Below are positions 9,393-34,847 of a stretch of 34,847 bases of DNA, piece by piece. The DNA is from Actinomycetota bacterium (lineage in GTDB: Bacteria; Actinomycetota; Thermoleophilia; UBA2241). The stretch spans positions 1-34,847 of the forward strand of contig JAPLCL010000190.1 of assembly GCA_026392265.1 (NCBI GenBank), read 5' to 3'. Both the position numbers and the translations under genes were made by a program. Positions within the stretch are counted from its first letter, which is position 1. Each line of letters begins with the position of its first letter. Below the pieces are notes generated by a model, which was given only the letters and a program-made list of their open reading frames with translations, was not told where the DNA came from and ran no database searches.

Positions 9393-10173
9393 AAAGAAGC
9401 TCGAGGGCCTGGTCGAGGGCGGCTTTGGCCGCGCCTTCAAGGCCAGCGTGCAGCCGGTCGAGCTGGCGCACAAGCTCGCCAAGGAGATGGGCGATCACAA
9501 GACCGTCGGGGTCTCCAACGTGTACGTGCCCAACGAGTTCGACATCTACCTGGGCGAGGCCGACTTCGAGCATCTGTCGTCGCTGTCGGAGTCGCTCAAG
9601 GCGGAGCTCGCCAACTACGTGACCGCCTTTGCGCGTCGCGAGGGCTGGACGCTCGTGGCGCCGCCGCGCATCGACCTCCACCGCGACGACGATCTACGCG
9701 TCGGCGAGTTCGGCATCGCCACGCGCACCGTCAACGCGCCGGCCGAGGCGCCGGGGCCGGCGTTCGTGCCGGCAGCTGCCACGCCGCCGGCAGCGGCCGC
9801 CCCGGGCGCGCTTCTCGACCACACCGTGCTCTACCAGGAGCAGGCCCCCGCGCCCGTGCCGGCGGTCGCGCCGCCCGTGGCGCGGGCGAGCGCCCCGCGT
9901 GCGTCCCTGCGCGGCCAGCAGGGCGAGTGGGAGCTGCGCGAGGCGGTCACCGTGATCGGGCGCAGCCGCCGCTGCGACATCGTGCTCACCGACCCCAACG
10001 TGTCGCGCCAGCACGCCGAGATCAGGCGCCAGAACGATGGCTTTATGGCGCTCGACCTTGGGTCCACCAACGGCATACGCGTCAACCGCCGCGACGTCAA
10101 ACAGGCTGTGCTGCAGCACGGCGACCGCATCGAACTGGGCACCACGGAGCTCGTGTTCGAGAGGCTGCCGTGA
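9370..10173 (+). CDS. fhaA: FHA-domain protein FhaA (DUF3662 N-domain plus C-terminal FHA)
   Basis: ATG at 9370 has GGAGG upstream and overlaps the kinase 3' end by 23 nt. N-terminus MGIFKKAEKKLEGLVEGGFGRAFKASVQPVELAHKLAKEM is DUF3662-like, followed by an Ala/Pro linker. FHA core: VTVIGRSRRCDIVLTDPNVSRQHAEI...LGSTNGIRVN. Confidence 0.85.
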   Translation: MGIFKKAEKKLEGLVEGGFGRAFKASVQPVELAHKLAKEMGDHKTVGVSNVYVPNEFDIYLGEADFEHLSSLSESLKAELANYVTAFARREGWTLVAPPRIDLHRDDDLRVGEFGIATRTVNAPAEAPGPAFVPAAATPPAAAAPGALLDHTVLYQEQAPAPVPAVAPPVARASAPRASLRGQQGEWELREAVTVIGRSRRCDIVLTDPNVSRQHAEIRRQNDGFMALDLGSTNGIRVNRRDVKQAVLQHGDRIELGTTELVFERLP

Positions 10174-10236
10174 TGCCGGCGCTCAGGTGAAGGCGACCGC
10201 CGTGTTTCGCGGCCGTGCGGGCTGCGGGAGACTGCC

Positions 10237-10782
10237 ATGATCGACATCGTCCTCCTCGTCCTCAAGATCGGCATCCTCGTCCTGCTCTACTTGTTCATCT
10301 GGCAGGTCGTGAAGACGGCCGTCGCCACCGTGCGCGCTCCCGCCGGTGCGGCTGCGGCCCCTGACGTCGCGCTTCCCGAGGGCTCGCGCCCCGTGGCCGT
10401 GTTCACGCCGGCCGAGCGGGAATCCCGCCGCGAGGACCGGCTGAGCGAACGCACGATGGCCGGCGACAAGCTCGACTTCACCGGTCACATCGATCCGCGT
10501 CTCATCGTCGAACAGAGCCCCATCGTGCCGACCGGCGTCGTGTTCCCCCTGCACGGCTGGATCACCGTGGGCCGCGCCTCGTCGAGCGACGTCGTGCTCG
10601 ACGAGCACTTCGTCTCGAGCACGCACGCGCGCTTTGTGCCGCGCGGCTCCTTCTACTTCGTGGAGGACCTGGGCAGTACCAACGGCACGTTCGTGAACGA
10701 GAAGCAGGTGAGCGGCGAGGCGCAGCTCAAGCTCGACAGCCGGGTGCGCATCGGCGAGACCGTCTTCCGCTACGAGGAGTGA
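10237..10782 (+). CDS. fhaB: Membrane-anchored FHA-domain protein (FhaB/FipA-like)
   Basis: 181 aa with an N-terminal TM helix (IVLLVLKIGILVLLYLFIW). C-terminal FHA: ITVGRASSSDVVLDEHFVSSTHARF...DLGSTNGTFVNEK. GGGAG lies 7 nt upstream of the ATG. Confidence 0.85.
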   Translation: MIDIVLLVLKIGILVLLYLFIWQVVKTAVATVRAPAGAAAAPDVALPEGSRPVAVFTPAERESRREDRLSERTMAGDKLDFTGHIDPRLIVEQSPIVPTGVVFPLHGWITVGRASSSDVVLDEHFVSSTHARFVPRGSFYFVEDLGSTNGTFVNEKQVSGEAQLKLDSRVRIGETVFRYEE

Positions 10783-10789
10783 CTCGCCG

Positions 10790-11986
10790 GTGACTCTCGT
10801 CGCCCGTCCCGGTGCCCTCACCGACATCGGCCTGCACCGCAAGACCAACGAGGACACCTTCGTCGTGGCCCCGCCGCTGTTCGCGGTCTGCGACGGCATG
10901 GGCGGCGCCCAGGCCGGCGAGGTCGCCAGCGGGCTCGCCGCCGAGACTCTCGTCGCCGCCGTCGCCGCCGGTCAGCCGCTGCTCGCGGCCGCCGAGCAAG
11001 CCAACGCGGCCGTCTTCGGGCGCGCCTGCGACGACAGCGATCATAAGGGCATGGGCACCACGCTCACGGCCGTCGTGCTCGCCGGCGACACCGGGCATTT
11101 CGTGCACATCGGCGACAGCCGTGCCTACCTGCTGCGGGGCGGCGCGCTGGAGCAGCTCAGCGACGATCAGTCCCTGGTCGGCGAGATGGTGCGCGACGGG
11201 CGCCTCAGCGCGGCAGAGGCGGTCTCGCACCCCCACCGCAGCATCCTCAGTCGCGCCCTGGGTACCGAAGCGCTGGCGAAGATCGACGAGTTCGAGGTCG
11301 ACCTGCAGGCCGGTGACGTGCTGCTGCTCTGCAGCGACGGGCTCAGCGGAGCCGTTCCGGCCGAGGACATCAGAAGGGCGCTCGGCCGTGCCGACCCCGG
11401 CGACGCGGCCGCCAAGCTCATCGCCGAAGCCCGCAAACAGGGCGGCCCCGACAACATCACCGCCGTCGTCGTGCGTCTTGACGAGCCGCGCGCCGCCGAC
11501 GAAGAGGTCACGCTCGCCGTCCCCGCCGACGAGGCGGCCACGGTGGTACTCACGGCCGCCGTCTTGCCGCCGACGCCGCGCGCCGCCCTCGCCGCGGCCG
11601 AGGGCAGCGGCGACGGCGGCGCAGCAGACGCCATACCAGTGGCGTCGGAGACTGTGTCCGAGGGCCCAGCGCCGGTACCGTCGCGCAGGTCCAAGCGGCG
11701 CCTCGGCTTCTTCGCCGTGGTGCTCGCGCTGCTCGTGGTGGTCGCCTTCGCCGGCGCCCTCACGGTCAGCACCGTCTTCTACGTGGGCGTCGACGACGGT
11801 CGCTTGGCCGTCTACAGCGGCGTGCCGGCGGCCCTCGGCCCGCTGCAGCTGCATGCCGTCTACCGGCGGAGCTCGCGCACCTACGAGTCGCTCGGCTCTG
11901 CCGAGCGCCGCCTTGTCGACGAGCAGGGCCTGCACACCAGGAGCAACATCATGGCTCTGGCCGAGATGCTGGGGATGTGGCCGTGA
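10790..11986 (+). CDS. pstP: PP2C-family Ser/Thr phosphatase with a C-terminal TM helix and extracytoplasmic tail (PstP-like)
   Basis: 398 aa. Motifs: TDIGLHRKTNEDTF, AVCDGMGGAQAGEVAS, LLCSDGL, GGPDNITAVVV. Then a Pro/Ala linker and the TM helix LGFFAVVLALLVVVAFAGAL. GTG start 7 nt after the fhaB stop. Confidence 0.9.
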   Translation: MTLVARPGALTDIGLHRKTNEDTFVVAPPLFAVCDGMGGAQAGEVASGLAAETLVAAVAAGQPLLAAAEQANAAVFGRACDDSDHKGMGTTLTAVVLAGDTGHFVHIGDSRAYLLRGGALEQLSDDQSLVGEMVRDGRLSAAEAVSHPHRSILSRALGTEALAKIDEFEVDLQAGDVLLLCSDGLSGAVPAEDIRRALGRADPGDAAAKLIAEARKQGGPDNITAVVVRLDEPRAADEEVTLAVPADEAATVVLTAAVLPPTPRAALAAAEGSGDGGAADAIPVASETVSEGPAPVPSRRSKRRLGFFAVVLALLVVVAFAGALTVSTVFYVGVDDGRLAVYSGVPAALGPLQLHAVYRRSSRTYESLGSAERRLVDEQGLHTRSNIMALAEMLGMWP

Positions 11987-13305
11987 GCCGGCGCAGTATC
12001 GAGCTGCTCTTCCTCGTGATCGCCGGCGCCGTGAGCACCATGGCGTACGTGTCCGTGTACGCGGGCCGTTTTCGCGAGATCAACCGCGTCTCCATCATCT
12101 ACGGCCTGGTCTTCGTGAGCATCTTCTTTCTGCTGCACCTTCTGGTGCGCTTCGTGCTCCCCCAGGCCGACCCGTTCCTGCTGCCCATCACCGCACTGCT
12201 GGCCGCGATCGGGCTCACGGAGATCTTCCGCATCCGCCCCGCTCTCGCGCTCACGCAGGGGCAGTGGCTGCTGGTCGGAGCCGGCCTCTTCGTTCTCACC
12301 GTGTTCATCGTGCGCGATCACATGAAGCTCGACCACTATCGTTACATCATGGGGGCCATCGGCCTGGGGTTGCTGGTGGCGACCATCGTGCTCGGCACGA
12401 CGGTCAACGGCGCCAAGCTGTGGATCCATGCCTTCGGCTTTTCGATCCAGCCGTCCGAGTTCGCCAAGCTCGCGATCGTCATCTTCCTGGCCGGCTACCT
12501 CAACGACAAGAAGGCACTGCTCTCCGTGCCCACGCACCACGTCCTCGGCATCCCGCTGCCGGCGGCCAAGTACTTCGGCCCGCTGCTCATCATGTGGGTA
12601 CTCTCGCTCGCCATGCTCATCTTCATGAAGGACTTCGGCATGGCGCTGCTCTTCATGTCGATCTTCGTGGCGCTCATGTACATGGCCACCACGCGGATCG
12701 TCTACGTGGTGCTGGGCGGCGGCCTCTTCGCCGCCGCCGCCGCGATCGCCGTCGCCGTCGTGCCACACGTCCAGGACCGCTTCACCACCTGGCTCGACCC
12801 CTGGCCCTATGCAAGTACGAGCGGCTACCAGCTGCTGCAGTCCCTGTTCACGATCGCCGACGGCGGCGTCCTGGGCGCCGGCTTCGGGCGCGGCTTTCTT
12901 CTGTACGCCAACCGTCAGCCGGTGGTCCCCGATCTGCAGACTGACTTCATCTTCGCCGCCATCGCCAACGAGACGGGTCTCCTCGGCGCGGCCGGCGTGA
13001 TCCTCCTCTACGTCCTCTTCATGTGGCGCGGCTTCCGCATCGCCGTGTGGGCGCCGGACGGCTTCTCCAAGCTGCTCGCCGCCGGCCTCGCCTTCGCCTT
13101 CGGCCTGCAGACCTTCATCATCATCGGCGGTGTCACGCGGCTCATCCCGCTGACCGGTATCACGCTGCCGTTCGTCAGCTACGGCGGCAGCTCCATCACC
13201 GCCAATCTCATGCTGGTCGCGCTGCTGCTCATGGTCTCGCACCGCACCAATGTGGTGCGCGAGGGCAGCGACCTCGAGCGCCGCCGCCTGGCGGAGCGCG
13301 GGTAG
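11977..13305 (+). CDS. rodA: SEDS-family peptidoglycan glycosyltransferase (FtsW/RodA/SpoVE)
   Basis: 442 aa and polytopic. SEDS-like segments: FSIQPSEFAKLAIVIFLAGYL, LQTDFIFAAIANETGLLGA, TGITLPFVSYGGSS. It overlaps the pstP stop by 10 nt and sits between pstP and pbpA, as in mycobacteria. Confidence 0.9.
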   Translation: MAVSRRSIELLFLVIAGAVSTMAYVSVYAGRFREINRVSIIYGLVFVSIFFLLHLLVRFVLPQADPFLLPITALLAAIGLTEIFRIRPALALTQGQWLLVGAGLFVLTVFIVRDHMKLDHYRYIMGAIGLGLLVATIVLGTTVNGAKLWIHAFGFSIQPSEFAKLAIVIFLAGYLNDKKALLSVPTHHVLGIPLPAAKYFGPLLIMWVLSLAMLIFMKDFGMALLFMSIFVALMYMATTRIVYVVLGGGLFAAAAAIAVAVVPHVQDRFTTWLDPWPYASTSGYQLLQSLFTIADGGVLGAGFGRGFLLYANRQPVVPDLQTDFIFAAIANETGLLGAAGVILLYVLFMWRGFRIAVWAPDGFSKLLAAGLAFAFGLQTFIIIGGVTRLIPLTGITLPFVSYGGSSITANLMLVALLLMVSHRTNVVREGSDLERRRLAERG

Positions 13306-13314
13306 GAGGCGGCG

Positions 13315-14754
13315 ATGAACAAGGCCATCTCCCGCATCTTCATCGTCGGCGTCATCCTTTTCGTCGCCCTGATCCTCAACCTCACCTGGATCATGGCCGG
13401 CCGCGCCCAGTGGTTCGCCGACCGCCCCGAGAACAAGCGCGGTATCGCCAAGGAGATGAAGATCAAGCGCGGCGACATCCTGGGCTACGACGGCTCCACC
13501 ATCGCGGGCTCGCTGCGACGCTCCGGTTACTACTACCGCGAGTACCCGCAGGGTACGGTGGCGCCCCAGCTGGTCGGCTACGACAGCGTGCGCTACGGGC
13601 GCAGCGGCATCGAGGACGAGCTCAACGACGAGCTCACCGGGCAGTCCACCGACCTCGGCGTGCAGAGCTGGATCGACCGGATCCTGGGACGCAAGCCCAA
13701 GGGCGCCAGCGTCCAGCTCACGCTGGTGCCGGCGGTGCAGAAGGAGGCCCAGAAGGCGCTCAGCGGCCTGAAAGGCGCCATCGTGGTCCTCGACCCCAAG
13801 ACGGGCGCCCTCATCGCCTCGGCCTCGGCGCCGACCTACGACCCCGCCAACCTCGAGGACGACTGGGCGCGGCTCAGCAACGACCCGGGGGCGCCGTTGC
13901 TCAACCGGCCCACGCAGGGTCTCTACCCGCCGGGCTCGGCTTTCAAGGTCGTAACGGCTACGTCGGGACTCGACAACGGCAAGGTCACGCCCGACACCGA
14001 GTTCATCGACACGGGCACCTACGTCGTGTTCGGTGGCAAGGTCACCAACTACGGGGGCGCCGTGTTCGGCCCCAACGACTTCACCACGGCGCTGACCTAC
14101 TCGATCAACACCACCTTCGGCAAGGTCGGCAACCTGCTGGGACGCAAACGGCTCATCTCGTCGATGCAGCGCTTCGGCTTCTACCAGACCCCGCCGCTGC
14201 CGCTGCCACGGGGCACGGTCGTTCCCAGCGGGCGCTACAGCAAGAACGGCTTGCTTTCGCCGGACGCCTTCATGGACCCGCTGGCCGTGGCCTGGGCGGC
14301 CGTCGGCCAGGAGCAGATCCTGTCGACGCCCTTACAGATGGCCCTGGTCGCCGCGGGCGTCGCCAATGGCGGCCGCGTCATGAAGCCGTACTACACGCAG
14401 CAAGTGGTGGCGGCCTCGGGCGCTGTGGTCCAGAAGGCACAGCCGGCGCAGTGGCTGGTCGCCATGAAGCCCGCCACCGCTTCTGAGCTCAACATCATGA
14501 TGCAGCGCGTCGTCAACGCCGGCACCGGCACGGCCGCGGCGCTCGAGGGCATCCAGGTCGCCGGCAAGACCGGCACCGCCGAGCGCGGTGACGGCAGCAA
14601 CCTGGCCTGGTTCATCGCCTTCGCGCCGGCGGAAGACCCGCAGGTGGCGATCGCGGTCATCATCGAAGACACCCAGTCGACCGGCGGCGAGGCGGCGGCG
14701 CCGCTCGCCGCCGCCGTGATCAAGACGGCTCTGGCGCAGCCGTCCTTGCCCTGA
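13315..14754 (+). CDS. pbpA: Class B penicillin-binding protein (transpeptidase), PbpA-like
   Basis: 479 aa with an N-terminal TM anchor. Motifs: SxxK (PPGSAFKVVTA), SxN (YSINTTF), KTG (GKTGTAE). Confidence 0.9.
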   Translation: MNKAISRIFIVGVILFVALILNLTWIMAGRAQWFADRPENKRGIAKEMKIKRGDILGYDGSTIAGSLRRSGYYYREYPQGTVAPQLVGYDSVRYGRSGIEDELNDELTGQSTDLGVQSWIDRILGRKPKGASVQLTLVPAVQKEAQKALSGLKGAIVVLDPKTGALIASASAPTYDPANLEDDWARLSNDPGAPLLNRPTQGLYPPGSAFKVVTATSGLDNGKVTPDTEFIDTGTYVVFGGKVTNYGGAVFGPNDFTTALTYSINTTFGKVGNLLGRKRLISSMQRFGFYQTPPLPLPRGTVVPSGRYSKNGLLSPDAFMDPLAVAWAAVGQEQILSTPLQMALVAAGVANGGRVMKPYYTQQVVAASGAVVQKAQPAQWLVAMKPATASELNIMMQRVVNAGTGTAAALEGIQVAGKTGTAERGDGSNLAWFIAFAPAEDPQVAIAVIIEDTQSTGGEAAAPLAAAVIKTALAQPSLP

Positions 14755-14814
14755 CGGGGCAGGGAGCCGGCGCCCGGACCCGTATCTGTCAGCAAAGGAG
14801 CGAGGTAACCAGAC

Positions 14815-16698
14815 GTGAGTGACGTGTTCCAGCCAGAGCAGGTGCTGAGCGGCCGCTACCGCGTGCTGCGCAAGATCGGCGGCGGCGGTATGGCCGACGT
14901 CTATCTTTGCGAGGATCTCAGCCTGGGCCGCCGTGTGGCGCTCAAGGTGCTGCTGCAGCGGTTCCTCGACGACCCCAACTTCGTCGAGCGCTTCCGCCGC
15001 GAGGCGAAGGCCGCGGCCGGTCTGAACCAGGCCAATCTTGTCAGCATCTACGACTGGGGCGAGGTCGACGGCACGTACTTCATCGTAATGGAGTACGTGG
15101 AGGGCGAGACGCTCAAGGATCTGGTGCGCCGGAAGGGCCGCCTCAGCGGCAACGAGGCCGTGCGCATCTCGCTGCAGCTCCTGGCGGCCCTCGAGTTCGC
15201 GCACCGCACGGGCATCGTGCATCGCGACATCAAGCCGCAGAACGTGATGCTCGACCGCGACGGCAACGCCAAGGTCACCGACTTCGGCATCGCGCGCGCC
15301 GCCGACTCCGGTATGACCGAGGCCGGCTCCATCCTCGGGACGGCCCAGTACCTGGCCCCCGAACAGGCAAGGGGCCACCGCGTCGACGAGCGTTCCGATC
15401 TGTACTCCGTCGGCATCGTTCTCTACGAGATGCTCACCGGCACGGTGCCGTTCAAGGGAGACAGCGCCGTCACCGTGGCTCTCAAGCACGTCAACGAGAT
15501 GGCCGCCGAGCCGGCGCAGATCGTGCCGGGCCTGCCCTACGCGCTCAACCAGATCGTCCTCAAGGCCATCGCCAAGGACCCCGGCCAGCGCTACCAGACG
15601 GCCGATCAGTTCGCCCGCGACCTGCGCTCCGCGCAGGTAGGCGGGCCCGTGGCCGCCGCCACGTTCGACCCCGGCGCCGAGGCCACCAGACTGATGAGCG
15701 CCGGCGTTCCCGCCGGCGCCACCTCGGTGATGACGGGCGGCCCGCTCGACCAGGCTGCGGGCGACCGTGGCCGCAGACGTCGCCGCTGGCCGTGGGTACT
15801 GGTCATCGTCCTGCTCCTGCTCGTGATCGCCGCCGCCGCTTACGGGTTGGTACGGGCGATGGGCGCAGGCGGCGTGGCCGTGCCCACCGTGGTGGGCAAG
15901 AGCCAGGCGGCAGCGCTTACCAAGCTCGAAGAGGCAGGCTTCAAAGCCGGCGTCCAGGAGGAGTACTCCGACAACTACGATGTGGGCTTCGTCAGCCGTC
16001 AGGCGCCCGCGGGCGGCACCAAGCTGCGCAAGGGCGATACGGTCGATATCTGGGTGAGCAATGGCAGCGAGACGGTCACGCTTGCGGACTTCAAGGGCTG
16101 GACGTCCGGCGACGTGCGCGACTGGCTCAGCCAGAACGGGCTCAGCCCCCTCGAGAAGTCCGGCAAGTCGAGCTCCGTCCCATCGGGCAGGGTGTTCAAA
16201 CAGGACCCGCCGGCCGGCGACCCGGTGAAGCGCGGCGACACGATCACCTACTGGGTGAGCAGCGGCAAGCCGCAGGCGACCGTCCCCGATCTCAGTGGCC
16301 TGACCCAGGACGAGGCGCAGACGGCCCTGGCCGGCGCCGGTCTGCTGCTTGGCGTGGTCACGCCCGAGCCGAGCAGTACGGTGCCGAGCGGCCAGGTCAT
16401 TCGCCAGGACCCCGCCGCTCTCGTCAAGATGGCAAAGGGATCCGCCGTGAACATCGTCGTGTCGAGCGGTTCGCCGTCGCCCTCTCCCAGCCCCACGGCG
16501 TCCACGGTGAGCGTCCCCAACGTGTACGGCATGGATTCGACGAGTGCGACGGACAAGCTCACGGCGGACGGATTCGGCGTCACCGTGCGACAGAAGGTCG
16601 GCACCGGCCAGCCTCCGGGCACGGTGGTCAGGATGGTGCCGGATGCCGGCACCGAGGTGGCCAGTGGATCGACCGTACTCCTGATCATCGCCAAGTAG
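14815..16698 (+). CDS. pknB: Ser/Thr protein kinase PknB with four extracellular PASTA repeats
   Basis: 627 aa. Kinase motifs: GGGGMADVY, VALKVL, HRDIKPQNVML, DFGIA, YLAPEQ. One TM helix (WPWVLVIVLLLLVIAAAAYGLV). Four PASTA-like units then begin at VPTVVGKS, VTLADFKG, TVPDLSGL and SVPNVYGM. Confidence 0.92.
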   Translation: MSDVFQPEQVLSGRYRVLRKIGGGGMADVYLCEDLSLGRRVALKVLLQRFLDDPNFVERFRREAKAAAGLNQANLVSIYDWGEVDGTYFIVMEYVEGETLKDLVRRKGRLSGNEAVRISLQLLAALEFAHRTGIVHRDIKPQNVMLDRDGNAKVTDFGIARAADSGMTEAGSILGTAQYLAPEQARGHRVDERSDLYSVGIVLYEMLTGTVPFKGDSAVTVALKHVNEMAAEPAQIVPGLPYALNQIVLKAIAKDPGQRYQTADQFARDLRSAQVGGPVAAATFDPGAEATRLMSAGVPAGATSVMTGGPLDQAAGDRGRRRRRWPWVLVIVLLLLVIAAAAYGLVRAMGAGGVAVPTVVGKSQAAALTKLEEAGFKAGVQEEYSDNYDVGFVSRQAPAGGTKLRKGDTVDIWVSNGSETVTLADFKGWTSGDVRDWLSQNGLSPLEKSGKSSSVPSGRVFKQDPPAGDPVKRGDTITYWVSSGKPQATVPDLSGLTQDEAQTALAGAGLLLGVVTPEPSSTVPSGQVIRQDPAALVKMAKGSAVNIVVSSGSPSPSPSPTASTVSVPNVYGMDSTSATDKLTADGFGVTVRQKVGTGQPPGTVVRMVPDAGTEVASGSTVLLIIAK

Positions 16699-29280: not shown

Positions 29281-29510
29281 GCGAGACACAGGCAGTACTC
29301 AACGTCCCGAGCATCTCCTGCAATCACTGCAGGATGGCGATCGAAGGTGCCGTGGGCGCCTTGGCCGGTGTGCGCTCGGTGGCCGTGGACGTCGACGCCA
29401 AGAGCGTGACCATCGCTTTCGAGTCCGTCGACGTGACCCTCGAGACGATCGCGGCGGCCGTCGAGGAAGAAGGCTACGAGGTCGCCGGCCGCCACGTGTT
29501 CGGCAATTGA
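29277..29510 (+). CDS. Heavy-metal-associated (HMA) domain protein, CopZ-like
   Basis: 77 aa. The ATG overlaps the ricT stop (ATGA). SISCNHCRMAIEGAVGALAGVRSVAVDVDAKSVTI has the CxxC metal-binding loop in a ferredoxin-like betaalphabetabetaalphabeta pattern. Confidence 0.8.
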   Translation: MSETQAVLNVPSISCNHCRMAIEGAVGALAGVRSVAVDVDAKSVTIAFESVDVTLETIAAAVEEEGYEVAGRHVFGN

Positions 29511-29530
29511 CGGCCGCTTCCGGCCGGTTT
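29511..29530 (+). terminator. Small hairpin plus short T-run directly after the HMA gene
   Basis: CGGCCG-CTTC-CGGCCG (29511-29526) followed by GTTTGG. The stem is only 6 bp. Confidence 0.35.
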
Positions 29531-29574
29531 GGCAAGACGACGGACGGCTGGTACCATATCGCCTCGCTAGCCGT

Positions 29575-29650
29575 GGGCCGTTAGCTTAGTTGGTAGAGCA
29601 GGGGACTCTTAATCCCAAGGTCGAAGGTTCGAATCCTTCACGGCCCACCA
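29575..29650 (+). tRNA. tRNA-Lys (anticodon CTT), CCA encoded
   Basis: GGGCCGTTAGCTTAGTTGGTAGAGCAGGGGACTCTTAATCCCAAGGTCGAAGGTTCGAATCCTTCACGGCCCACCA. Acceptor stem is GGGCCGT/ACGGCCC. Anticodon loop is CTCTTAA. T arm is GAAGG-TTCGAAT-CCTTC. Confidence 0.92.
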
Positions 29651-29769
29651 GCCTTCCCCCGGCGGCACGGGCCGCCTCCAGAACAGTTGCCCAGGCGCGC
29701 GCCGCTCTGCTATCGTTGTCTCTATATGGGCCACTGTGACGCACTTCGCCTGACGGGAGCCCCGACAAC

Positions 29770-30564
29770 GTGAACGGCCGCATGAAGCCCTCCGTGGGCC
29801 GCCTCTTGGATGACGCCCGCTTCTCGATCGCCCCTCGCGGCGGCGAGGACGTCTTGCGCCAAGGCCTCATCATGCTCGCCTGCTACGCGGTCTACGATGT
29901 CTCCAGGGCCGTCGTTGTCGGTCGAGAGGCCGTCGCCATGGCCAACGGCCTCTTCTTCATGAACCTCGAGAAAGCCATGGGCATGTTCTGGGAGCCGTGG
30001 GTCCAAGGCCGCGTCAGCGCCTTTCCGCCGCTCATGGACTTCCTCGTATGGTCGTACGGCGCCCTGCATCTGCCGCTTATCATGGGTGTCACGGTGTGGA
30101 TCTTCACGCAGCGCCGCAGCCGCTGGAAGCAGTTTCGTAACTGGTTCCTCGCCATGAACTTCATGGCGGTCCTGCTCTACTTCCTGCTGCCCACGGCGCC
30201 GCCGCGCATGATCTTCACCTCGGGCGTCGCCGACATCAGCTACCTGCAGGGCAAACGCTCGGCGATCTTCGAGGACGGCTTCCTCGCCAATCCCTTCGCG
30301 GCCATGCCCAGCCTCCATTTCGCCTATGCGCTCTTTGTGGCGCTCGCCCTCTTCATGCTCGCGCGCCAGACCTGGCTGCGGTGGGGCGGCTTCGCGTATC
30401 CGGCGCTGGTGCTCCTCGCTATCGTCGCCACCGGCAACCACTTCTTCGTCGACGCCGTCGGCAGTGTGCTCGTGCTGCTGGCTGCCTACGTCTTCGCAGT
30501 GAGTCTCCAGACGAGCGACGCCACCGGCGCGCGCGCCGTGACGGTGCGCGAGCGCGACGGCTGA
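29770..30564 (+). CDS. PAP2-superfamily membrane protein of the IPC-synthase/PAP2_3-like type
   Basis: 264 aa and polytopic. Motifs: LLPTAPPRM, AMPSLHFAYALF and TGNHFFVDAVG (the S-x-H ... H-x3-D part of the PAP2 signature). I see no obvious K-x6-R-P motif. GTG start; the ATG at 29782 is an alternative. Confidence 0.75.
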   Translation: MNGRMKPSVGRLLDDARFSIAPRGGEDVLRQGLIMLACYAVYDVSRAVVVGREAVAMANGLFFMNLEKAMGMFWEPWVQGRVSAFPPLMDFLVWSYGALHLPLIMGVTVWIFTQRRSRWKQFRNWFLAMNFMAVLLYFLLPTAPPRMIFTSGVADISYLQGKRSAIFEDGFLANPFAAMPSLHFAYALFVALALFMLARQTWLRWGGFAYPALVLLAIVATGNHFFVDAVGSVLVLLAAYVFAVSLQTSDATGARAVTVRERDG

Positions 30565-30565
30565 C

Positions 30566-31180
30566 GTGACGAACCTCAAGACCCGCTACACCGACGGAGC
30601 GCGCCGTGGCTTCTTCAGAATCGGCGTCGTGCTCGCCCGTCTCGGCCTCACCGCTGACATGCTCACTGTCTTCGGCCTGCTGCTGCACGTCGGCCTGGTG
30701 CCGCTCGTCCTTACGGGTCACTTCGTGTGGGCGGTGCCTCTGGGGATCATCGCGGGGTTTTGCGACGCCCTCGACGGGGCTGTGGCTCGCGCCGGCGTCG
30801 GTCCCACGAAGGCCGGCGCTTTCCTCGATTCGACGACCGACCGTATCTCCGAGCTTCTGGTGTCCGGGGCGCTTGTCATGTATTTCGCGGGCAAGGCGCA
30901 GTGGTGGCCCACGGCCGCCGTCCTGGTGTTCATGGGGGCGGCCCAGATGGTCTCGTATTCGCGGGCCCGCGCCGAGGCGCTCGGCGTGGAGTGCAAGGTG
31001 GGGTTCATGTCGCGCCCGGAGCGCCTCGTCGGGCTCGGCCTGGGCTTCCTTTTCTCCGGCTGGTCTCCGGGCGGCACGAGCTTCCTCGTCTGGATGTTGT
31101 ATCTGCTGGCGGTGTTGACCTCCCTGACCGTGGTACATCGCATGGTCCACGTGATGCGCAAGCTCCGCGCTGCCGCGTGA
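30566..31180 (+). CDS. pgsA1: CDP-alcohol phosphatidyltransferase, most likely phosphatidylinositol-phosphate synthase
   Basis: 204 aa. Signature D-x2-DG-x2-AR-x8-G-x3-D-x3-D appears as CDALDGAVARAGVGPTKAGAFLDSTTDRISE. LGLTADMLTVFG and QMVSYSRARAEALG...SRPERL line up with my recollection of M. tuberculosis PgsA1. The GTG start lies 1 nt after the PAP2 stop. ino1 is adjacent. Confidence 0.8.
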   Translation: MTNLKTRYTDGARRGFFRIGVVLARLGLTADMLTVFGLLLHVGLVPLVLTGHFVWAVPLGIIAGFCDALDGAVARAGVGPTKAGAFLDSTTDRISELLVSGALVMYFAGKAQWWPTAAVLVFMGAAQMVSYSRARAEALGVECKVGFMSRPERLVGLGLGFLFSGWSPGGTSFLVWMLYLLAVLTSLTVVHRMVHVMRKLRAAA

Positions 31181-31291
31181 TATACTCTCGCGCGTTATCG
31201 TTGAGCCCGCGGGGAGCGTGGCGTACGCCCGCGGGCGGTGCGCATCGAGGCGGCCGCGGGCGCGGCCGCTGCAAGTGGAGGTAGACCGATC

Positions 31292-32395
31292 TTGGGTAAT
31301 CCGGTACGCGTTGCCATCATAGGCGTGGGTAACTGCGCCTCATCCTTCGTACAGGGCGTGGAGTTCTACAAGAACGCCAAGAAGTCAGACTTCGTCCCCG
31401 GCCTCATGCACCCCGTGCTCGGCGGCTACCACATTCGTGACATCGAGTTCGTGGCGGCCATCGACATCGACAAGAACAAGGTGGGCAAGGATCTCAGCGA
31501 GGCCGTCTTCACGAAGCCCAACAACACCGTGAAGTTCGCGGAGGTGCCCAAGAAGGACGTCAAGGTCGTGCGCGGTATGACCCACGACGGCCTCGGCAAG
31601 TATCTCTCGCAGATCATCGAAAAGGCGCCCGGCGCCACCGCCGACATCGTCGGCATCCTTAAGGAGACGCAGGCGGACGTGGTGGTCAACTACCTGCCGG
31701 TGGGCAGCGAAGAGGCCACTAAATGGTACGCCGAGCAGATCCTCACGGCAGGCTGTGCCATGGTGAACTGTATCCCCGTGTTCCTCGCCCGCGAGCCCTA
31801 CTGGCAGAAGCGTTTCGTCGAGGCGGGCGTGCCGATAATCGGCGACGACATCAAGAGCCAGGTCGGCGCCACCATCGTGCACCGCGTGCTCACGCGTCTC
31901 ATGCGCGAGCGCGGCGTCAAGCTCGAGCGCACCAGCCAGCTCAACGTGGGCGGCAACACCGACTTTCTCAACATGCTCGAGCGCGAGCGTCTCGAGTCGA
32001 AGAAGATCAGCAAGACCAACGCCGTCACCAGCCAGCTCGACTACGATATGGGCGCCAAGAACGTGCACATCGGTCCGAGCGACTATGTGGAGTGGCTGGA
32101 AGACCGCAAGTGGGCCTACATCCGCATGGAGGGCCGCACCTTCGGCGACGTGCCCCTCAACATCGAGCTCAAGCTTGAGGTCGTCGACTCACCGAACTCG
32201 GCGGGCATCGTCATCGACGCTGTGCGCTGCGCCAAGATAGGCCTCGACCGCGGCCTGGCCGGATCGCTCGAGGGCCCCAGCAGCTACTTCATGAAGTCGC
32301 CGCCGGTGCAGCACCCCGACGATCAGTGCCGCCGCATGACCGAGGAGTTCATCGCCGGCGAGGGCTCCGGCGCCACCGCTGTCTGCCAAGGATGA
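31292..32395 (+). CDS. ino1: myo-Inositol-3-phosphate (1L-myo-inositol-1-phosphate) synthase
   Basis: TTG at 31292, with GGAGG 10 nt upstream, inside track ORF 31238..32395. [23 protein letters not shown] (NAD-binding), [42 protein letters not shown] and [16 protein letters not shown] are typical of the bacterial/archaeal-type MIPS. Confidence 0.92.
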
Positions 32396-32411
32396 CCGCC
32401 GTAGGTGGGTG

Positions 32412-32444
32412 ATCGAGGGGTGCGCCGAAGGGACACCCCTCGAT
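32412..32444 (+). other. Perfect 11-bp hairpin 17 nt after the ino1 stop
   Basis: ATCGAGGGGTG (32412-32422), an 11-nt loop, then CACCCCTCGAT (32434-32444). Confidence 0.5.
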
Positions 32445-32534
32445 AGCCTGCGAAGTGTCGCCGGCGAGCGGGGCGCCGTAGGCACACCGCTCATTTACGC
32501 GCGCAGCGGCGAGCATCACGGCCGGTGTTCCTTC

Positions 32535-32570
32535 CGGGCGGGCCGGGGCCGAAAGGCCCCGGCCCGCCCG
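32535..32570 (+). terminator. Perfect 16-bp G/C hairpin with a GAAA tetraloop followed by TCGTTTG
   Basis: CGGGCGGGCCGGGGCC (32535-32550), loop GAAA, then GGCCCCGGCCCGCCCG (32555-32570), followed by a short T-run. It lies 140 nt after ino1 and 57 nt before the next start. Confidence 0.6.
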
Positions 32571-32626
32571 TCGTTTGAGCCGCCGCGGCGCGCCCCGGCG
32601 ACGCCGGCCCGGCTGCGTGCGGTACC

Positions 32627-34531
32627 ATGAGCGTCATGAGCCACAAGATCGGTATCCTCACGCCGTTTCTCTGGACGGCGCCGTCGGGCGTGAACCGCCA
32701 GGTGGAGGCGCTTGTCGAGCGACTTACGGCGCACGGTCATCGGGTCACGGTGATCGCCCCCAGCGACGACCTGCAGGCGGTCGGCGAGGCGGAGCGCCGC
32801 GTGCAGGCCGTGCTCACCGGCGAGCGGCCGACGGTCTTCCTGCCCGACGAGCCACACCCGCGCTTCTTCTTCGCCGGCGCCACCTACGCGGTGCGCGAAA
32901 GTCGCTCACTCAAGCTCATCGCCGCTCCGGCGGACCTCATCGCCAATGTCGACGTGCTGCTCGAGGCCGAGGATCTCGACGTGCTGCACCTCAACGAGCC
33001 GTTCGTCCCCGGCCTCGGATGGACGGCGCTGCGTCACGCCGGTTGCCCCCTGGTGGCGACCTTCCACGCCAACCCCGAGCGGATGGCGCCCTTCTGGGCC
33101 ACGCGGCCGCAACTTCGCCGCCTCTTCGACTCGCTCGACGCCGCCATTGCCTCGTCGCGGGCGACGAGGGACACGGCGGCGCTCACCTTTCCCGGCGCCT
33201 ATCGCGTCATCCCGCCGGGCGTCGATCTGCAACGGTTCAAGGCCGGCGACGGCAGGGAGCCCGGCCCGCTGCGGATCCTGTTCGCGGGCGTGGAGTCGCG
33301 GCGTAAGGGGCTCGGTGTGCTGCTGCGCGCGCTGCGCTACCTCGACGACCGTGCCGCCGAGCTGACGCTCGATGTCTGCGGTGCCGCTCGGCAGGAGCGG
33401 AGGTACGCGCGACTGGTCCCGCCGGCGTTCGCAGGCCGCGTGCGCTTTCTCGGGCGCGTGGCCGACGCCGCCATGCCGGACCTGTACCGGCGCGCCGACG
33501 TGTTCTGCGCGCCCTCCCTGGGCCCCGAGACCGCAGGGGTGGCGCTGCTCGAGGCCATGGCCTGCGGCGCGGCCGTGGTCGCCTCGCGGCTGCCAGGCTA
33601 CGACGAGGTCGTTTACGACGGCACCGACGGATTGCTGGTGCCGCCGCGCCGGCCGCGGGAGCTCGCTGCCGCCCTGCGGGGCCTTCTCGACGACCCGACC
33701 CTGGCGGTTCGCCTGGCGCAGGAGGGGCTGCGCACCGTGCGCCGTTTCGACTGGGAGCGCGTCGCCGGCGAGATCGAGGGCGTCTATGAGCAGGTGGCGG
33801 GGAGGCGGCGGCAGCCGCTGCCGCGTCGCCGCCGCCAGCAGCGCGAGCTGTTCGCCGATTTTCACATCCACACGCACCACAGCAAGGATTGCACGATGCC
33901 GGTCGCCGACATCCTCGAGCGCGCCCGCGAGGTCGGCCTCGATGTCGTCGCCATCACCGACCACGACAGCGCCGCCGGCGGCCTCGAAGCTCGCGAGATC
34001 GCCGACCGCTACGGCGTGCGTGTGATCGTCGGCGAGGAGGTCAAGTCCAGCGAGGGCGAGGTCATCGGGCTGTTCCTGGAGCGCACGATCCCCGGCGGCA
34101 TGACGTTCGCCGAGACGATCGCCGCCATCAAGGAGCAAGGTGGTATCGTGTACGTGCCGCACCCCTTCGACCGCCTCCACACTATCCCCAGCCCGCAGGT
34201 GCTGCGCGCCAACGTCGCCGACGTCGACGTGCTGGAGGTGTTCAACTCGCGCCTCGCCTTCCCGGGGTTCAACGAGCTCGCCGAGCGATTTGCGCAGCGC
34301 TATCGCATCCCGGCGGCCGCGGGCAGCGACTCGCACGTGCTCCCCGGTATCGGTACGGCCCTGTGCGGCATCGACGACTTCTCCGGGCCTGAGGACTTCG
34401 TCGCGGCCCTCGCCGAGAGCCGCATCGTGCGCCGCCCCAGGAGCCTCATTTACCTGCAGTCGCTCAAGTTCCTCCAGACCACCATCGGCGGGCCGTCGCG
34501 GGGCGCAGGGCAGGAGGATTCCCCTGCATAA
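32627..34531 (+). CDS. Fusion protein: PimA-like GT4 glycosyltransferase (aa 1-~385), Arg-rich linker, PHP-family phosphoesterase (aa ~409-620)
   Basis: A single uninterrupted 634-codon ORF. GT4 part: KIGILTPFLWTAPSGVNRQVEALVERLTAHGHRVTVIAP, LRILFAGVESRRKG, and GPETAGVALLEAMACGAAVVAS (E-x7-E). Linker: GRRRQPLPRRRRQQRE. PHP part: DFHIHTHHSKDC, VAITDHD, VGEEV, VYVPHPFD, AAGSDSH. Confidence 0.85.
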   Translation: MSVMSHKIGILTPFLWTAPSGVNRQVEALVERLTAHGHRVTVIAPSDDLQAVGEAERRVQAVLTGERPTVFLPDEPHPRFFFAGATYAVRESRSLKLIAAPADLIANVDVLLEAEDLDVLHLNEPFVPGLGWTALRHAGCPLVATFHANPERMAPFWATRPQLRRLFDSLDAAIASSRATRDTAALTFPGAYRVIPPGVDLQRFKAGDGREPGPLRILFAGVESRRKGLGVLLRALRYLDDRAAELTLDVCGAARQERRYARLVPPAFAGRVRFLGRVADAAMPDLYRRADVFCAPSLGPETAGVALLEAMACGAAVVASRLPGYDEVVYDGTDGLLVPPRRPRELAAALRGLLDDPTLAVRLAQEGLRTVRRFDWERVAGEIEGVYEQVAGRRRQPLPRRRRQQRELFADFHIHTHHSKDCTMPVADILERAREVGLDVVAITDHDSAAGGLEAREIADRYGVRVIVGEEVKSSEGEVIGLFLERTIPGGMTFAETIAAIKEQGGIVYVPHPFDRLHTIPSPQVLRANVADVDVLEVFNSRLAFPGFNELAERFAQRYRIPAAAGSDSHVLPGIGTALCGIDDFSGPEDFVAALAESRIVRRPRSLIYLQSLKFLQTTIGGPSRGAGQEDSPA

Positions 34532-34632
34532 CGCGCGGATAATCCCTCCCGTCCCGGATTTGCGGAGCGGCTGCGAGGAGTTGGCGGGAGCGGCGCGAAC
34601 TACCTAGCGGACACCCCGAACCGAGGTACCGC

Positions 34633-34847
34633 GTGGCGCAACCCAATGAGATCTATGACAAGTACCTGACCCGGGCGATCTCCGAGATCAACGAGCTCAC
34701 CGGCGAGATCCTCAGGTGCTCCAGATGCAGCCACGCGCGCACCATGCCGGTGATCGGCTCCGGCCACCCGATGGCCGACATCTTCATGCTCAAGTACCAG
34801 GCGCGCCCGTCCGAGCTGCACGAAGGCGTGGCGTTCTTCGGGCGCGC
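34633..34847 (+). CDS. Uracil-DNA glycosylase superfamily protein (family-4-like, Fe-S type), N-terminal fragment running off the window
   Basis: My own translation from the GTG at 34633 (GAGG 7 nt upstream; in-frame TAA at 34540) gives VAQPNEIYDKYLTRAISEINELTGEILRCSRCSHARTMPVIGSGHPMADIFMLKYQARPSELHEGVAFFGR. CxxC...R..PV.G.G.P.A..M follows the family-4 UDG N-terminal pattern. The frame is open to the window end. Confidence 0.6.
   Translation, partial: MAQPNEIYDKYLTRAISEINELTGEILRCSRCSHARTMPVIGSGHPMADIFMLKYQARPSELHEGVAFFGR

Follow-up and report, generated by a model that had tools for sequence, protein, structure and literature searches.

A GT4 glycosyltransferase–PHP phosphoesterase fusion conserved beside inositol-lipid genes in Thermoleophilia: a candidate phosphatidylinositol-phosphate phosphatase

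Results

Gene neighborhood

The window analyzed here is the whole 34,847-nt stretch of contig JAPLCL010000190.1 (assembly GCA_026392265.1, Thermoleophilia). All features discussed are located on its forward (+) strand. A gene for a 264-aa integral membrane protein of the PAP2_3 family (29770..30564; Pfam PAP2_3, 147.7 bits, full model) lies directly 5' of a gene for a 204-aa PIP synthase-type CDP-alcohol phosphatidyltransferase (PIPS, 30566..31180; Pfam CDP-OH_P_transf), with a gap of 1 nt between the two. The ino1 gene (31238..32395) encodes a myo-inositol-3-phosphate synthase of 385 aa (MIPS; Pfam Inos-1-P_synth), which is 67-97% identical across related loci and scores 549 bits with TIGR03450 (cut-off 638). 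For PIPS, the best NCBIfam matches are AIP synthase (140.5 bits, cut-off 180) and PIP synthase (119.7 bits, cut-off 170), and among solved structures it is closest to M. tuberculosis PgsA1 (6h53, 1.3e-18) and PIPS 5d91/6wm5.

The PAP2_3 protein reaches 22.9 bits with the classical PAP2 model, i.e., less than the respective cut-off, and weakly matches the model of the Bacteroides phosphoinositol-dihydroceramide synthase (BT_1522; 30 bits vs. a cut-off of 480). From hydropathy and the positive-inside rule, its SLH (181-183) and H233/D237 motifs are predicted to lie on the outside of the membrane. The protein could be either a rival candidate for the PIP phosphatase or a phosphoinositol transferase. 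No PgpA, HAD or IMPase genes were found in the window, and the PgpA-family domain has no match in the fusion or its neighbors.

A spacer of 231 nt (32396..32626) separates ino1 from the fusion gene. It is highly structured (MFE of -159.5 kcal/mol, z = -6.98 vs. shuffles) and contains hairpins at 32412-32444 and 32535-32570, the latter with a perfect stem of 16 bp and a GAAA loop; its inverted repeats are I2 and I4. A GC-rich hairpin is present at the equivalent position in four other loci (L003, L010, L004 and L006), and the motif TGCnnTAnCATGnnnnnCATG is invariant. At the transition from spacer to fusion (32623-32628) we find the -10-like TACCAT, and the spacer probably provides a separate promoter for the fusion gene. 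An Rfam scan of the window reported two tRNAs and no other known RNA element, and a promoter/terminator scan of 29300-34847 gave no signal near the fusion gene. Since the hairpin-rich spacer and the probable separate promoter intervene, the fusion gene may not be strictly co-transcribed with ino1.

Downstream, the 5' part of a UDG-superfamily gene (34633..34847; ORF call with Pfam UDG match) leaves the window. Its family is found 3' of the fusion in 52/80 loci and is probably unrelated to it in function. The original prediction had placed the fusion gene directly downstream of ino1 and a PgsA1-type PIP synthase. Both genes are indeed upstream on the same strand, but "directly" does not hold given the structured spacer after ino1. 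The description also named MIPS and PIPS correctly but left out the adjoining PAP2_3 gene and thereby a rival phosphatase candidate.

Domain architecture of the fusion

The fusion is encoded by one ORF (32627..34531) of 634 codons with no internal stop, i.e., 634 aa with the stop codon inside the coordinates, as expected from the earlier description and confirmed by the ORF list, the domain scan and full-length homologues. Given the conservation of the start region, translation probably begins at the second ATG (32636), which gives 631 aa. The Pfam domain matches all exceed their curated cut-offs. The N-terminal acceptor-side Rossmann domain of the GT4 glycosyltransferase (32627..33241, aa 1-205) is matched by Glyco_transf_4 at aa 20-203, and the C-terminal donor-side domain (33242..33799, aa 206-391) by Glycos_transf_1 / Glyco_trans_1_4 at aa 210-367 (102 bits for Glycos_transf_1). 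The phosphoesterase domain (33848..34426, aa 408-600) consists of PHP (aa 411-475) and PHP_C (aa 548-599). In the JGI annotation the fusion is labeled TrpH.

The two halves are joined by an Arg-rich linker (RRRQPLPRRRRQQRE; 33800..33847, aa ~392-407), which had been noted before and turns out to be kept in homologues with the consensus RRRxPxxRRRRxQREL, where R393 and R401 are invariant (alignment A1). Behind the PHP domain, a conserved basic segment and helix (RRPRSLIYLQSLKFLQT) is followed by a variable tail (34427..34528). Within the basic segment, S606, Y609, L610, S612, L613, K614, Q617 and T618 are invariant in the same alignment. The helix is predicted at residues 202-215 of the PHP-only AF2 model with a pLDDT of about 60, while the overall pLDDT of this model is 91.9 for a domain of about 215 aa. 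The full-length AF2 model (pLDDT 74.5 from a 13-sequence alignment) shows aa 398-411 as disordered. Its linker and C-terminus are modeled poorly, so we relied on the PHP-only model in its place. No transmembrane segment is predicted for the fusion.

GT half

In sequence comparisons, PimA is the best match of the GT half (156 bits, 1.2e-44), with the next best at 67.7 bits; weaker matches include MshA (67 bits, 1e-17) and PimB' (4e-12). This is also reflected in the fold matches, i.e., PimA (4n9w/2gej) ranks best in Foldseek with a TMt of 0.82-0.84 and 31-32% identity. A distant fusion of 40% identity matches PimA alone. Sucrose-phosphate synthase (6kih) and MshA are also among the sequence and fold matches, but the MshA equivalog TIGR03449 yields 83.2 bits vs. 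a cut-off of 462.5 and covers the C-terminal domain only. By pairwise score the GT half thus groups with the inositol-directed PimA among its GT4 relatives and appears closer to it than to MshA, PimB', BshA and GlgA. The resemblance to PimA over MshA, formerly stated from the N-terminus, is borne out.

The donor and catalytic residues of the window's protein are intact (R225/K227/G228 and the EX7E motif E301...E309). According to the match line, PimA has the same residues at H121, E124, K227, G228, E301 and E309 of the HxxEP, R/K-G and EX7E motifs. The N-terminal domain aligns with PimA at aa 7-47 and from aa 113 onward only. The segment between, aa 48-112, is about 25 residues longer than and unaligned to PimA residues ~47-87, which form the PI/membrane-binding segment, and AF2 confidence is low at aa 87-100. 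As this segment does not align to its PimA counterpart, PI is a putative acceptor of the GT half.

PHP half

The predicted metal ligands of the PHP half are H413, H415, D421, H446, E470, H512, N540, D568 and H570, and they align with those of 3e0f and 2yb1. The original prediction held that every metal-ligand motif is kept. All five motifs it named are found (DFHIH 411, TDHD 444, GEEV 469, PHPF 511, GSDSH 566), but one canonical His ligand of TrpH-type PHPs (the "EVWH" His in 3e0f) is replaced by the invariant Asn N540.

The best Foldseek matches are the PHP of RNase AM (7ug9), TM0559 (2anu), BAD_1165 (3e0f), PsfC (7rty) and Cv1693 (2yb1). Identity to the nearest characterized relatives, i.e., RNase AM and the pAp phosphatase Cv1693, is 16-25%. 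The TrpH-type insertion of ~85-100 residues between the E470 and H512 strands is absent, such that PHP-half residues 87-102 are the counterpart of residues 83-185 in 3e0f. The NCBIfam equivalogs score far under their cut-offs, with 38.7 (cut-off 375) for RNase RNM (NF047791) and 42.6 (cut-off 400) for pAp phosphatase (NF041577). Judged by these comparisons, the PHP half is a compact PHP subfamily without a characterized close relative.

Distribution and synteny

The fusion is found in more than 120 protein clusters (90% identity) with full-length matches at 60-95% identity, and the genome loci that match it number at least 591. Of these, 80 were retrieved, almost all of them labeled Thermoleophilia, Solirubrobacterales or Thermoleophilaceae, and soil metagenome contigs carry the same gene cluster around the fusion. 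The junction of GT, linker and PHP recurs in more than 200 homologues, without frameshift in the linker. An origin in a single genome or by artefact is ruled out, and the GT4-PHP fusion is confirmed as genuine and widespread.

For the 69 loci with at least 3.5 kb of upstream DNA, we counted same-strand upstream neighbors: MIPS is present in 69/69, PIPS in 67/69 and PAP2_3 in 54/69. The median gap between MIPS and the fusion is 171 bp, and in a divergent fusion PIPS directly adjoins the fusion gene. Synteny with PIPS and MIPS persists class-wide at fusion identities of 39-95%. The proposed Rosetta-stone link is therefore maintained beyond this genome, i.e., fusion and neighborhood together point to a genuine, class-wide conserved link of a PHP phosphoesterase to a PimA-like GT4 in a PIPS-MIPS cluster.

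Residue conservation

We performed a residue census over 202 fusions, including 82 distant ones. Each of the nine predicted PHP ligands as well as R542 is replaced or missing in at most 2/202 fusions. The GT donor and catalytic residues, on the other hand, are kept only in the window's clade and are replaced in 70-90% of the distant fusions. In the majority of these, K227, E301 and E309 carry substitutions, and E309 is R or K in 56/82. The difference also manifests in the median identity to the window's protein, which is 56% for the PHP half vs. 35-36% for the GT domains. Constraint on the fusion is by this measure strongest in the PHP half.

An invariant PHP where the GT catalytic residues are gone indicates that the PHP is the selected activity, independent of the reaction of the attached GT. 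It also implies that, in most of the family, the PHP must act on something other than what the attached GT makes. The decayed GT modules are probably kept as a scaffold that binds PI(P) or targets the phosphatase to the membrane.

Stand-alone PHP relatives

The closest stand-alone relatives are 37-50% identical to the fused PHP and mostly carry Chloroflexota names. We inspected four of their contexts (three Chloroflexota-type matches and one metagenome contig, L141). They consist of housekeeping genes, with inositol genes in 0/4 and the order M24 peptidase-PHP-Formyl_trans_N in 3/4. Because these four contexts are without inositol genes, we take the PHP subfamily to be not intrinsically inositol-linked. 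In several of the stand-alone proteins, the 18-mer with the strongest amphipathic character is that of the C-terminal tail.

A metagenome scan with the stand-alone PHP alignment retrieved fusion loci almost exclusively, with just L129 and L141 as apparent stand-alone genes. The near-fusion stand-alone representatives P0162 and P0160 are on contigs of less than 1 kb, and their contexts are uninformative. Close relatives of the window carry a stand-alone PHP gene a few kb 3' of the fusion, beyond the window's end (L001 16940-17599). We rejected this paralogue as a recent source of the fused PHP, as it is only about 24% identical and belongs to a different subfamily.

Discussion

Proposed function

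In actinobacteria, PI anchors PIMs, lipomannan and lipoarabinomannan. The pathway was revised in 2010, and the gap at the phosphatase converting PIP to PI has been known since. We consider the fused PHP the best candidate so far for this dephosphorylation step, which is without an assigned actinobacterial gene. Papers from 2019 and 2020 call the phosphatase unidentified (PMC6506517, PMC7502851), and cultured Thermoleophilia contain PI and reportedly PIM (PMC3035278, PMC10722151). Within the openly accessible literature to 2026, we found no assigned actinobacterial or archaeal PIP/AIP phosphatase, with BT_1525 as the sole relevant match, and neither an identified MshA2 nor a link between PimA and PHP.

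Our main reading is that the PHP half is a cytoplasmic PIP 3-phosphatase tethered to a PimA-like module. We assign this proposal a probability of roughly 0.5. The fusion would work in phosphatidylinositol metabolism as a two-module enzyme that is cytoplasmic and peripheral to the membrane. MIPS would provide inositol-3-phosphate, which the PIP synthase would join with CDP-diacylglycerol to phosphatidylinositol 3-phosphate (PIP). The PHP module, as a metal-dependent phosphomonoesterase, would then take off the 3-phosphate and yield PI. In the window's clade only, the intact PimA-like GT4 would glycosylate PI, most likely by mannosylation to PIM1, while in most other Thermoleophilia the GT module would be a scaffold that provides the phosphatase with PI(P) binding or membrane targeting.

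We base the proposed PIP-phosphatase activity on the fusion, on synteny and on the pattern of conservation; the substrate PIP, the reaction order, the membrane association and the scaffold role of decayed GT modules are likewise inferred. The predicted topology fits the proposal, i.e., the fusion has a cytoplasmic-type GT and no transmembrane segment while the PAP2_3 motifs are predicted outward. Against it speaks that the nearest characterized PHP relatives, at 16-25% identity, act on nucleotides or RNA. More tentative is the extended reading in which this PIP 3-phosphatase has a fold new to the PIP-to-PI step, non-homologous to the Bacteroides PgpA-type enzyme, and the GT half in most of Thermoleophilia is a pseudo-glycosyltransferase scaffold whose catalytic Glu became a conserved Arg/Lys.

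Alternative explanations

The main rival, which we consider unlikely, assigns the PIP phosphatase to the PAP2_3 protein. The PHP would then have another task at the membrane, e.g., hydrolysis of a nucleotide formed as by-product or of a different lipid head group that carries phosphate. The PAP2_3 gene is positioned immediately 5' of PIPS and is found upstream in 54/69 loci, the PAP2 superfamily includes lipid phosphate phosphatases, and E. coli PgpB exemplifies a PAP2 that faces outward yet acts on a lipid synthesized inside the cell. The nucleotide/RNA phosphoesterases among the PHP's nearest characterized relatives fit this rival too. However, the match of the protein is strong for PAP2_3 (147.7 bits) and only sub-cut-off for classical PAP2, and the PAP2_3 members characterized to date act as phosphoinositol transferases (AUR1-type IPC synthases). 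An outward orientation is predicted for its catalytic motifs, and it is missing near about a fifth of the loci while PIPS, MIPS and the fusion stay. A PHP that clears the nucleotide product of the GT is furthermore hard to reconcile with an invariant PHP where the GT site is lost. Relatives acting on nucleotides or RNA also motivate an explanation that we regard as improbable, namely that the PHP is a TrpH/RNase AM-like phosphoesterase and its PimA-like fusion a lineage-specific accident without inositol role. BAD_1165, Cv1693 and RNase AM are the best sequence and fold matches, the JGI label is TrpH, and the stand-alone relatives reside among housekeeping genes. Yet the PHP half is without the ~85-100-residue TrpH-type insertion, the equivalog scores are low (38.7 vs. 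375 for RNase RNM, 42.6 vs. 400 for pAp phosphatase), and an accidental fusion is not expected to hold the synteny with PIPS and MIPS across the class at 39-95% identity.

The remaining two alternatives keep an inositol substrate. In one, the PHP is a soluble inositol-monophosphate phosphatase, i.e., a non-homologous IMPase replacement that turns the MIPS product into free inositol and is not lipid-directed. MIPS is upstream in 69/69 loci, the PHP relatives include a pAp phosphatase, and pAp and inositol-phosphate substrates overlap in the IMPase family. We nevertheless hold it to be very improbable: the PimA-like peripheral-membrane module, the polybasic linker and the basic C-terminal helix point to an interfacial substrate, and destruction of Ins-3-P would compete with the co-encoded PIP synthase. 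The other is a pair of MshA/MshA2 type, where the GT glycosylates inositol-3-phosphate (or PIP) and the PHP removes the phosphate from what the GT has made, a scheme known from sucrose-phosphate synthase/phosphatase fusions. Pathways that form a glycoside phosphate and dephosphorylate it in a second step use such GT-phosphatase fusions as a rule, and the matches by sequence and fold include both sucrose-phosphate synthase (6kih) and MshA. MshA2 has so far been named merely as "a phosphatase" (PMC13156731), and the original prediction had suggested it as a second option. This suggestion is not supported by the comparison with the MshA equivalog (83 vs. a cut-off of 462.5 bits). As the nearest relative of the GT half is clearly PimA and the PHP site is invariant where GT catalytic residues are lost, we rate this pair the least probable of the explanations considered.

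Significance

If the PIP-phosphatase reading is true, the PHP, a fold unassigned to the PIP-to-PI step before, fills this step at least in Thermoleophilia. The fusion provides a concrete, class-wide candidate of new fold that is open to direct test. An invariant phosphatase next to a decaying GT would furthermore be a clear case of an enzyme domain turned targeting scaffold. The mycobacterial PIP phosphatase is not identified by the fusion, nor do our data support extending the role to actinobacteria at large, as the nearest stand-alone relatives are mostly from Chloroflexota and the four contexts inspected are without inositol genes.

Comparison with known systems

With PimA (GDP-mannose:phosphatidylinositol alpha-1,2-mannosyltransferase; M. 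smegmatis 2gej/4n9w) the fusion shares the GT-B GT4 fold and identical residues in HxxEP, RKG and EX7E. As is the case for mycobacterial pimA, a PIP synthase gene is found near the fusion gene. In contrast to PimA, the fusion, 31-32% identical, has the longer, unaligned segment at aa 48-112 (about 25 extra residues) and an additional C-terminal PHP.

For the proposed reaction from PIP to PI, the counterpart is BT_1525, a genetically supported PgpA-family PIP phosphatase from the inositol-lipid cluster of B. thetaiotaomicron (PMC9246714). In this Bacteroides cluster, the genes for a PAP2-type synthase, PIPS and MIPS are accompanied by one for a dedicated PIP phosphatase whose fold is not PHP (PMC9246714), and the fusion likewise lies in a cluster with a PAP2-type enzyme, PIP synthase and MIPS. 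BT_1525 differs in its fold (PgpA vs. PHP), is a separate protein not fused to a GT, and has an activity supported by genetics, whereas that of the fusion is inferred. Any equivalence of the two would be functional, not homologous.

Among PHP proteins, TrpH/YciV (RNase AM) and Cv1693 (7ug9, 9etk, 2yb1, 3e0f) show the same barrel with HxH / D / H / E / H / DxH ligands. They differ by an identity of 16-25%, TM-scores of 0.6-0.7, the insertion absent from the fusion and the one His that is an invariant Asn in the fusion. TM0559 (2anu) and the stand-alone PHP+PHP_C proteins of Chloroflexota are as compact as the fused domain (~215-230 aa), and the latter have invariant ligands and a basic C-terminal helix in common with it. 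Unlike the fused PHP, these proteins are unfused, uncharacterized and located among housekeeping genes (with a Formyl_trans_N neighbor in 3/4 contexts).

Finally, sucrose-phosphate synthase-SPP and trehalose-6-P synthase-TPP are retaining GT-B enzymes fused to a HAD phosphatase that acts after the GT, on its product. Like these, the fusion combines a retaining GT-B glycosyltransferase and a phosphatase of one short pathway. Its phosphatase, in contrast, has a PHP fold; it most likely precedes the GT in the pathway and is retained in fusions with an inactive GT.

Fusion gene and neighbourhood

The fusion is encoded by one open frame at 32627..34531 on the forward strand, 634 aa long and, according to the ORF list, free of internal stop codons. 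Pfam models above their curated cut-offs assign Glyco_transf_4 to aa 20-203, Glycos_transf_1/Glyco_trans_1_4 to aa 210-367, PHP to aa 411-475 and PHP_C to aa 548-599. All five PHP motifs named in the original prediction were located, i.e., DFHIH (aa 411), TDHD (444), GEEV (469), PHPF (511) and GSDSH (566).

Upstream, on the same strand, lie the genes of a PAP2_3 membrane protein (29770-30564), a CDP-alcohol phosphatidyltransferase of the PIP synthase (PIPS) type (30566-31180) and the inositol-3-phosphate synthase MIPS (ino1, 31238-32395). The PAP2_3 gene, which ends 1 nt before the PIPS gene, had been overlooked in the original prediction. For the product of 30566-31180, the top NCBIfam models are archaetidylinositol-phosphate and phosphatidylinositol-phosphate synthases, both below cut-off, and among solved structures M. 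tuberculosis PgsA1 is closest. Beginning 100 nt past the fusion gene, a UDG-superfamily gene (34633-34847) continues beyond the window end; it is the conserved downstream neighbour in 52/80 related loci. Elsewhere, the window has the content of an ordinary actinobacterial core chromosome (fhaA-fhaB-PP2C-rodA-pbpA-pknB, topA, tmk, holB, PSP1), a setting confirmed by the canonical actinobacterial cell-division signalling cluster at 7689-16698 (Ser/Thr kinase, FhaA, FHA protein, PP2C phosphatase, RodA/FtsW, PBP transpeptidase, PASTA kinase). No PgpA-, HAD- or IMPase-type phosphatase candidate was found elsewhere in the window.

Between ino1 and the fusion lies a strongly structured spacer of 231 nt (32396-32626; MFE -159.5 kcal/mol, z = -6.98), which holds an 11-bp hairpin (32412-32444) as well as a perfect 16-bp GC hairpin with GAAA loop (32535-32570). 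A GC-rich hairpin of different sequence occupies the equivalent position in the related loci L003, L010, L004 and L006. The element may be a terminator, an attenuator or mRNA-stabilising. The motif TGCnnTAnCATGnnnnnCATG (32618-32640) is invariant in six related loci. Its TACCAT (32623-32628) resembles a -10 hexamer and lies 7 nt ahead of the second ATG (32636), which suggests a -10 element with a leaderless start at 32636 and a product of 631 aa with the N-terminus MSHKIGIL. Given the structured spacer and the -10-like motif, the fusion gene may therefore be a separate transcription unit.

Distribution and synteny

More than 120 full-length cluster representatives of the fusion share 60-95% identity and an identical Pfam set. 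Scanning a collection with one genome per species yielded at least 591 stretches matching the fusion, from which 80 loci were retrieved. Their labels are nearly all Thermoleophilia, Thermoleophilaceae, Solirubrobacterales/-aceae or Paraconexibacteraceae, with identity down to 39%; the same gene cluster is also found on soil metagenome contigs. When counting only loci whose upstream sequence extends for at least 3.5 kb (69 in total), the same-strand upstream neighbours comprise MIPS in 69/69 (median gap to the fusion 171 bp), PIPS in 67/69 and PAP2_3 in 54/69. The UDG-like gene also follows three still more divergent fusions, one of which has PIPS immediately upstream. Since the fusion recurs class-wide with conserved synteny, and its Arg-rich linker is conserved as well, the linker cannot stem from an assembly join or a frameshift, a concern of the original prediction. 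That is, the fusion is real and found across the class.

In 33/80 loci (e.g., L025, 3316-4986), a gene for a membrane protein of about 556 aa without any Pfam match abuts PAP2_3 upstream and is itself often preceded by an alpha/beta hydrolase gene. The inositol-lipid cluster of Solirubrobacterales and Thermoleophilaceae may also include this membrane protein.

Glycosyltransferase half

The original prediction had placed the GT half closer to PimA than to MshA, which holds at both sequence and fold level. Among all PDB sequences, two PimA sequences come out on top (1.2e-44, 156 bits), followed by a sucrose-phosphate synthase and MshA at about 1e-17 and by PimB' at 4e-12. Foldseek with the AF2 model also returns PimA first (4n9w/2gej; target-normalised TM 0.82-0.84, 31-32% identity), and for a Solirubrobacterales-type fusion of 40% identity PimA is the sole match below 1e-5. 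The PimA-alignable part of the GT half covers only aa 7-47 and aa 113 onward, while aa 48-112 exceed the PimA counterpart region by about 25 residues and are not alignable. Residues shared with PimA include H121/E124 (HxxEP), K227/G228 and the EX7E glutamates E301 and E309. For the window's clade, sequence-level membership tests place the GT half with PimA, and the glycosyltransferase is intact.

We tabulated key positions in an alignment of 202 fusions, i.e., 120 with at least 58% identity to the window and 82 more distant ones. On the PHP side, H413, H415, D421, H446, E470/E471, H512, N540, R542, D568 and H570 are (near-)invariant, each being replaced or missing in at most 2/202. For the GT half, the 120 closer fusions retain E309 throughout, E301 in 114 and K227 in 96. 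Among the 82 distant fusions, E309 is replaced by R in 49 and by K in 7 and is still E in only 10; E301 has become R (34) or A (24), K227 has become G (31) or A (28), and 74 have R225 deleted. Around EX7E, the alignment is free of gaps and unambiguous. Measured against the window, the PHP half has a median identity of 56%, compared with 35-36% for each GT domain. The GT4 fold is retained in the distant fusions with weak Pfam scores (Glycos_transf_1 25-40 bits vs. 102 in the window).

Retaining GT4 enzymes need the EX7E glutamates and the phosphate-binding Lys for transferase activity, such that halves without them would have lost it. An invariant PHP site alongside a lost GT site argues that constant selection acts on the PHP phosphoesterase activity, and that this activity cannot, in most of the family, be directed at the attached glycosyltransferase's product or nucleotide by-product. 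At the positions equivalent to window aa 225-228, 301 and 309, fusions of the Solirubrobacterales and Thermoleophilaceae types mostly carry a conserved Arg/Lys in place of E309 and have lost the RKG phosphate-binding motif. The distant GT halves look like a pseudo-glycosyltransferase rather than random decay and may have acquired a new function.

PHP half and its relatives

The PHP half, modelled from a 61-sequence alignment, gave a confident structure (pLDDT 91.9). Among solved structures, it is nearest to the RNase AM PHP domain, TM0559, BAD_1165, PsfC and Cv1693, with TM 0.60-0.70 and 16-25% identity. According to sequence alignments, TrpH-type proteins carry an insertion of about 85-100 residues that is absent here, and the His of their 'EVWH' strand is Asn in the PHP half. 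Scores against the NCBIfam equivalog models for RNase RNM and bisphosphonucleotide phosphatase fall about tenfold short of the cut-offs. We thus place the PHP half outside the TrpH/RNase AM family, whose defining features were tested for and not found. It thus forms a compact PHP subfamily, and homology does not reveal its substrate.

Searching 1.8 billion representatives gave 283 relatives of the PHP half below 1e-30, many of them fusions of 580-700 aa. The same search returned a stand-alone PHP family of 215-230 aa with 37-50% identity, whose named members are labelled as Chloroflexota or its classes Anaerolineae and Dehalococcoidia. Neighbour-joining places the fused PHPs in what is essentially a single clade. 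None of the four stand-alone contexts examined has inositol genes nearby, i.e., the stand-alone relatives lend no support to a general inositol role of the subfamily. Three of the four show the order M24 peptidase-(efp)-PHP-Formyl_trans_N (L163 7001-8495, with efp present; L165 7001-8468; L141 8001-9516), a conserved pairing of the stand-alone PHP with M24 peptidase and Formyl_trans_N genes.

A second PHP+PHP_C protein, stand-alone and 216-219 aa long, is encoded by close relatives of the window's organism (L001, 16940-17599, reverse strand; same gene family in L003, L004, L006, L007 and L010). Where observed, its gene follows the fusion at a distance of about 5-6 kb, past the window end. With only about 24% identity to the fused PHP, it was ruled out as a member of the same subfamily and therefore belongs to a different one.

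Proposed role

PIPS would produce phosphatidylinositol phosphate (PIP) on the cytoplasmic face. The main polar lipid of Conexibacter woesei is phosphatidylinositol (PI; PMC3035278), and PI and PIM were detected by TLC in a Solirubrobacter strain (PMC10722151), i.e., the lipid found in cultured Thermoleophilia is PI, not PIP (PMC3035278, PMC10722151). PIPS making PIP while cultured members contain PI implies that a PIP phosphatase must exist there; the actinobacterial enzyme is described as unidentified (PMC6506517, PMC7502851). The PHP domain always adjoins PIPS and MIPS and is the only invariant cytoplasmic catalytic module tethered to a PimA-type module. The absence of any transmembrane segment in the fusion protein, its conserved polybasic linker and its conserved basic C-terminal helix would fit an interfacial enzyme. 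We therefore give a probability of roughly one half to the PHP domain being a PIP phosphatase tethered to a PimA-type module and bifunctional in the window's clade.

Dephosphorylation of PIP could also be assigned to the PAP2_3 protein, whose gene adjoins PIPS. We consider this unlikely: the protein matches the PAP2_3 model, which we take to be of the AUR1/IPC-synthase type, and not classical PAP2; its catalytic motifs are predicted to face outwards, and about one fifth of the loci lack it in the neighbourhood. The lineage that carries this AUR1/IPC-synthase-like protein is not known to make sphingolipids. Clearly less probable is that the PHP domain acts as a TrpH-like nucleotide/RNA enzyme with a function unrelated to inositol, a reading weakened by the missing insertion and the class-wide synteny. 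An IMPase-like soluble enzyme ranks slightly lower still. Least probable is the MshA/MshA2-like route raised in the original prediction: the MshA equivalog model scores 83 bits vs. a cut-off of 462.5, and the PHP is invariant where GT residues are lost. The rest of the probability is assigned to none of these readings.

Following the preferred PIP phosphatase reading, the PHP module would dephosphorylate PIP to PI. Since the glycosyltransferase is intact in the window's clade, the protein there plausibly has both activities (PIP to PI to glycosyl-PI).

Public annotation names the fusion proteins only 'glycosyltransferase' or 'TrpH', and no paper tying a PHP domain to PimA or PIP was found in the literature searched. 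If the PIP reading is true, the reaction is a known one, carried out by a fold and in an architecture that are new for it. The PHP half is unrelated to the PgpA-type PIP phosphatase; the B. thetaiotaomicron enzyme of this type is BT_1525, whose deletion causes PIP-DAG to build up (PMC9246714). A Bacteroides cluster combines a PAP2-type phosphoinositol transferase, PIPS and MIPS with a PIP phosphatase dedicated to this step, which has a different fold (PMC9246714); by analogy, PHP would fill the phosphatase slot in the cluster of Thermoleophilia.
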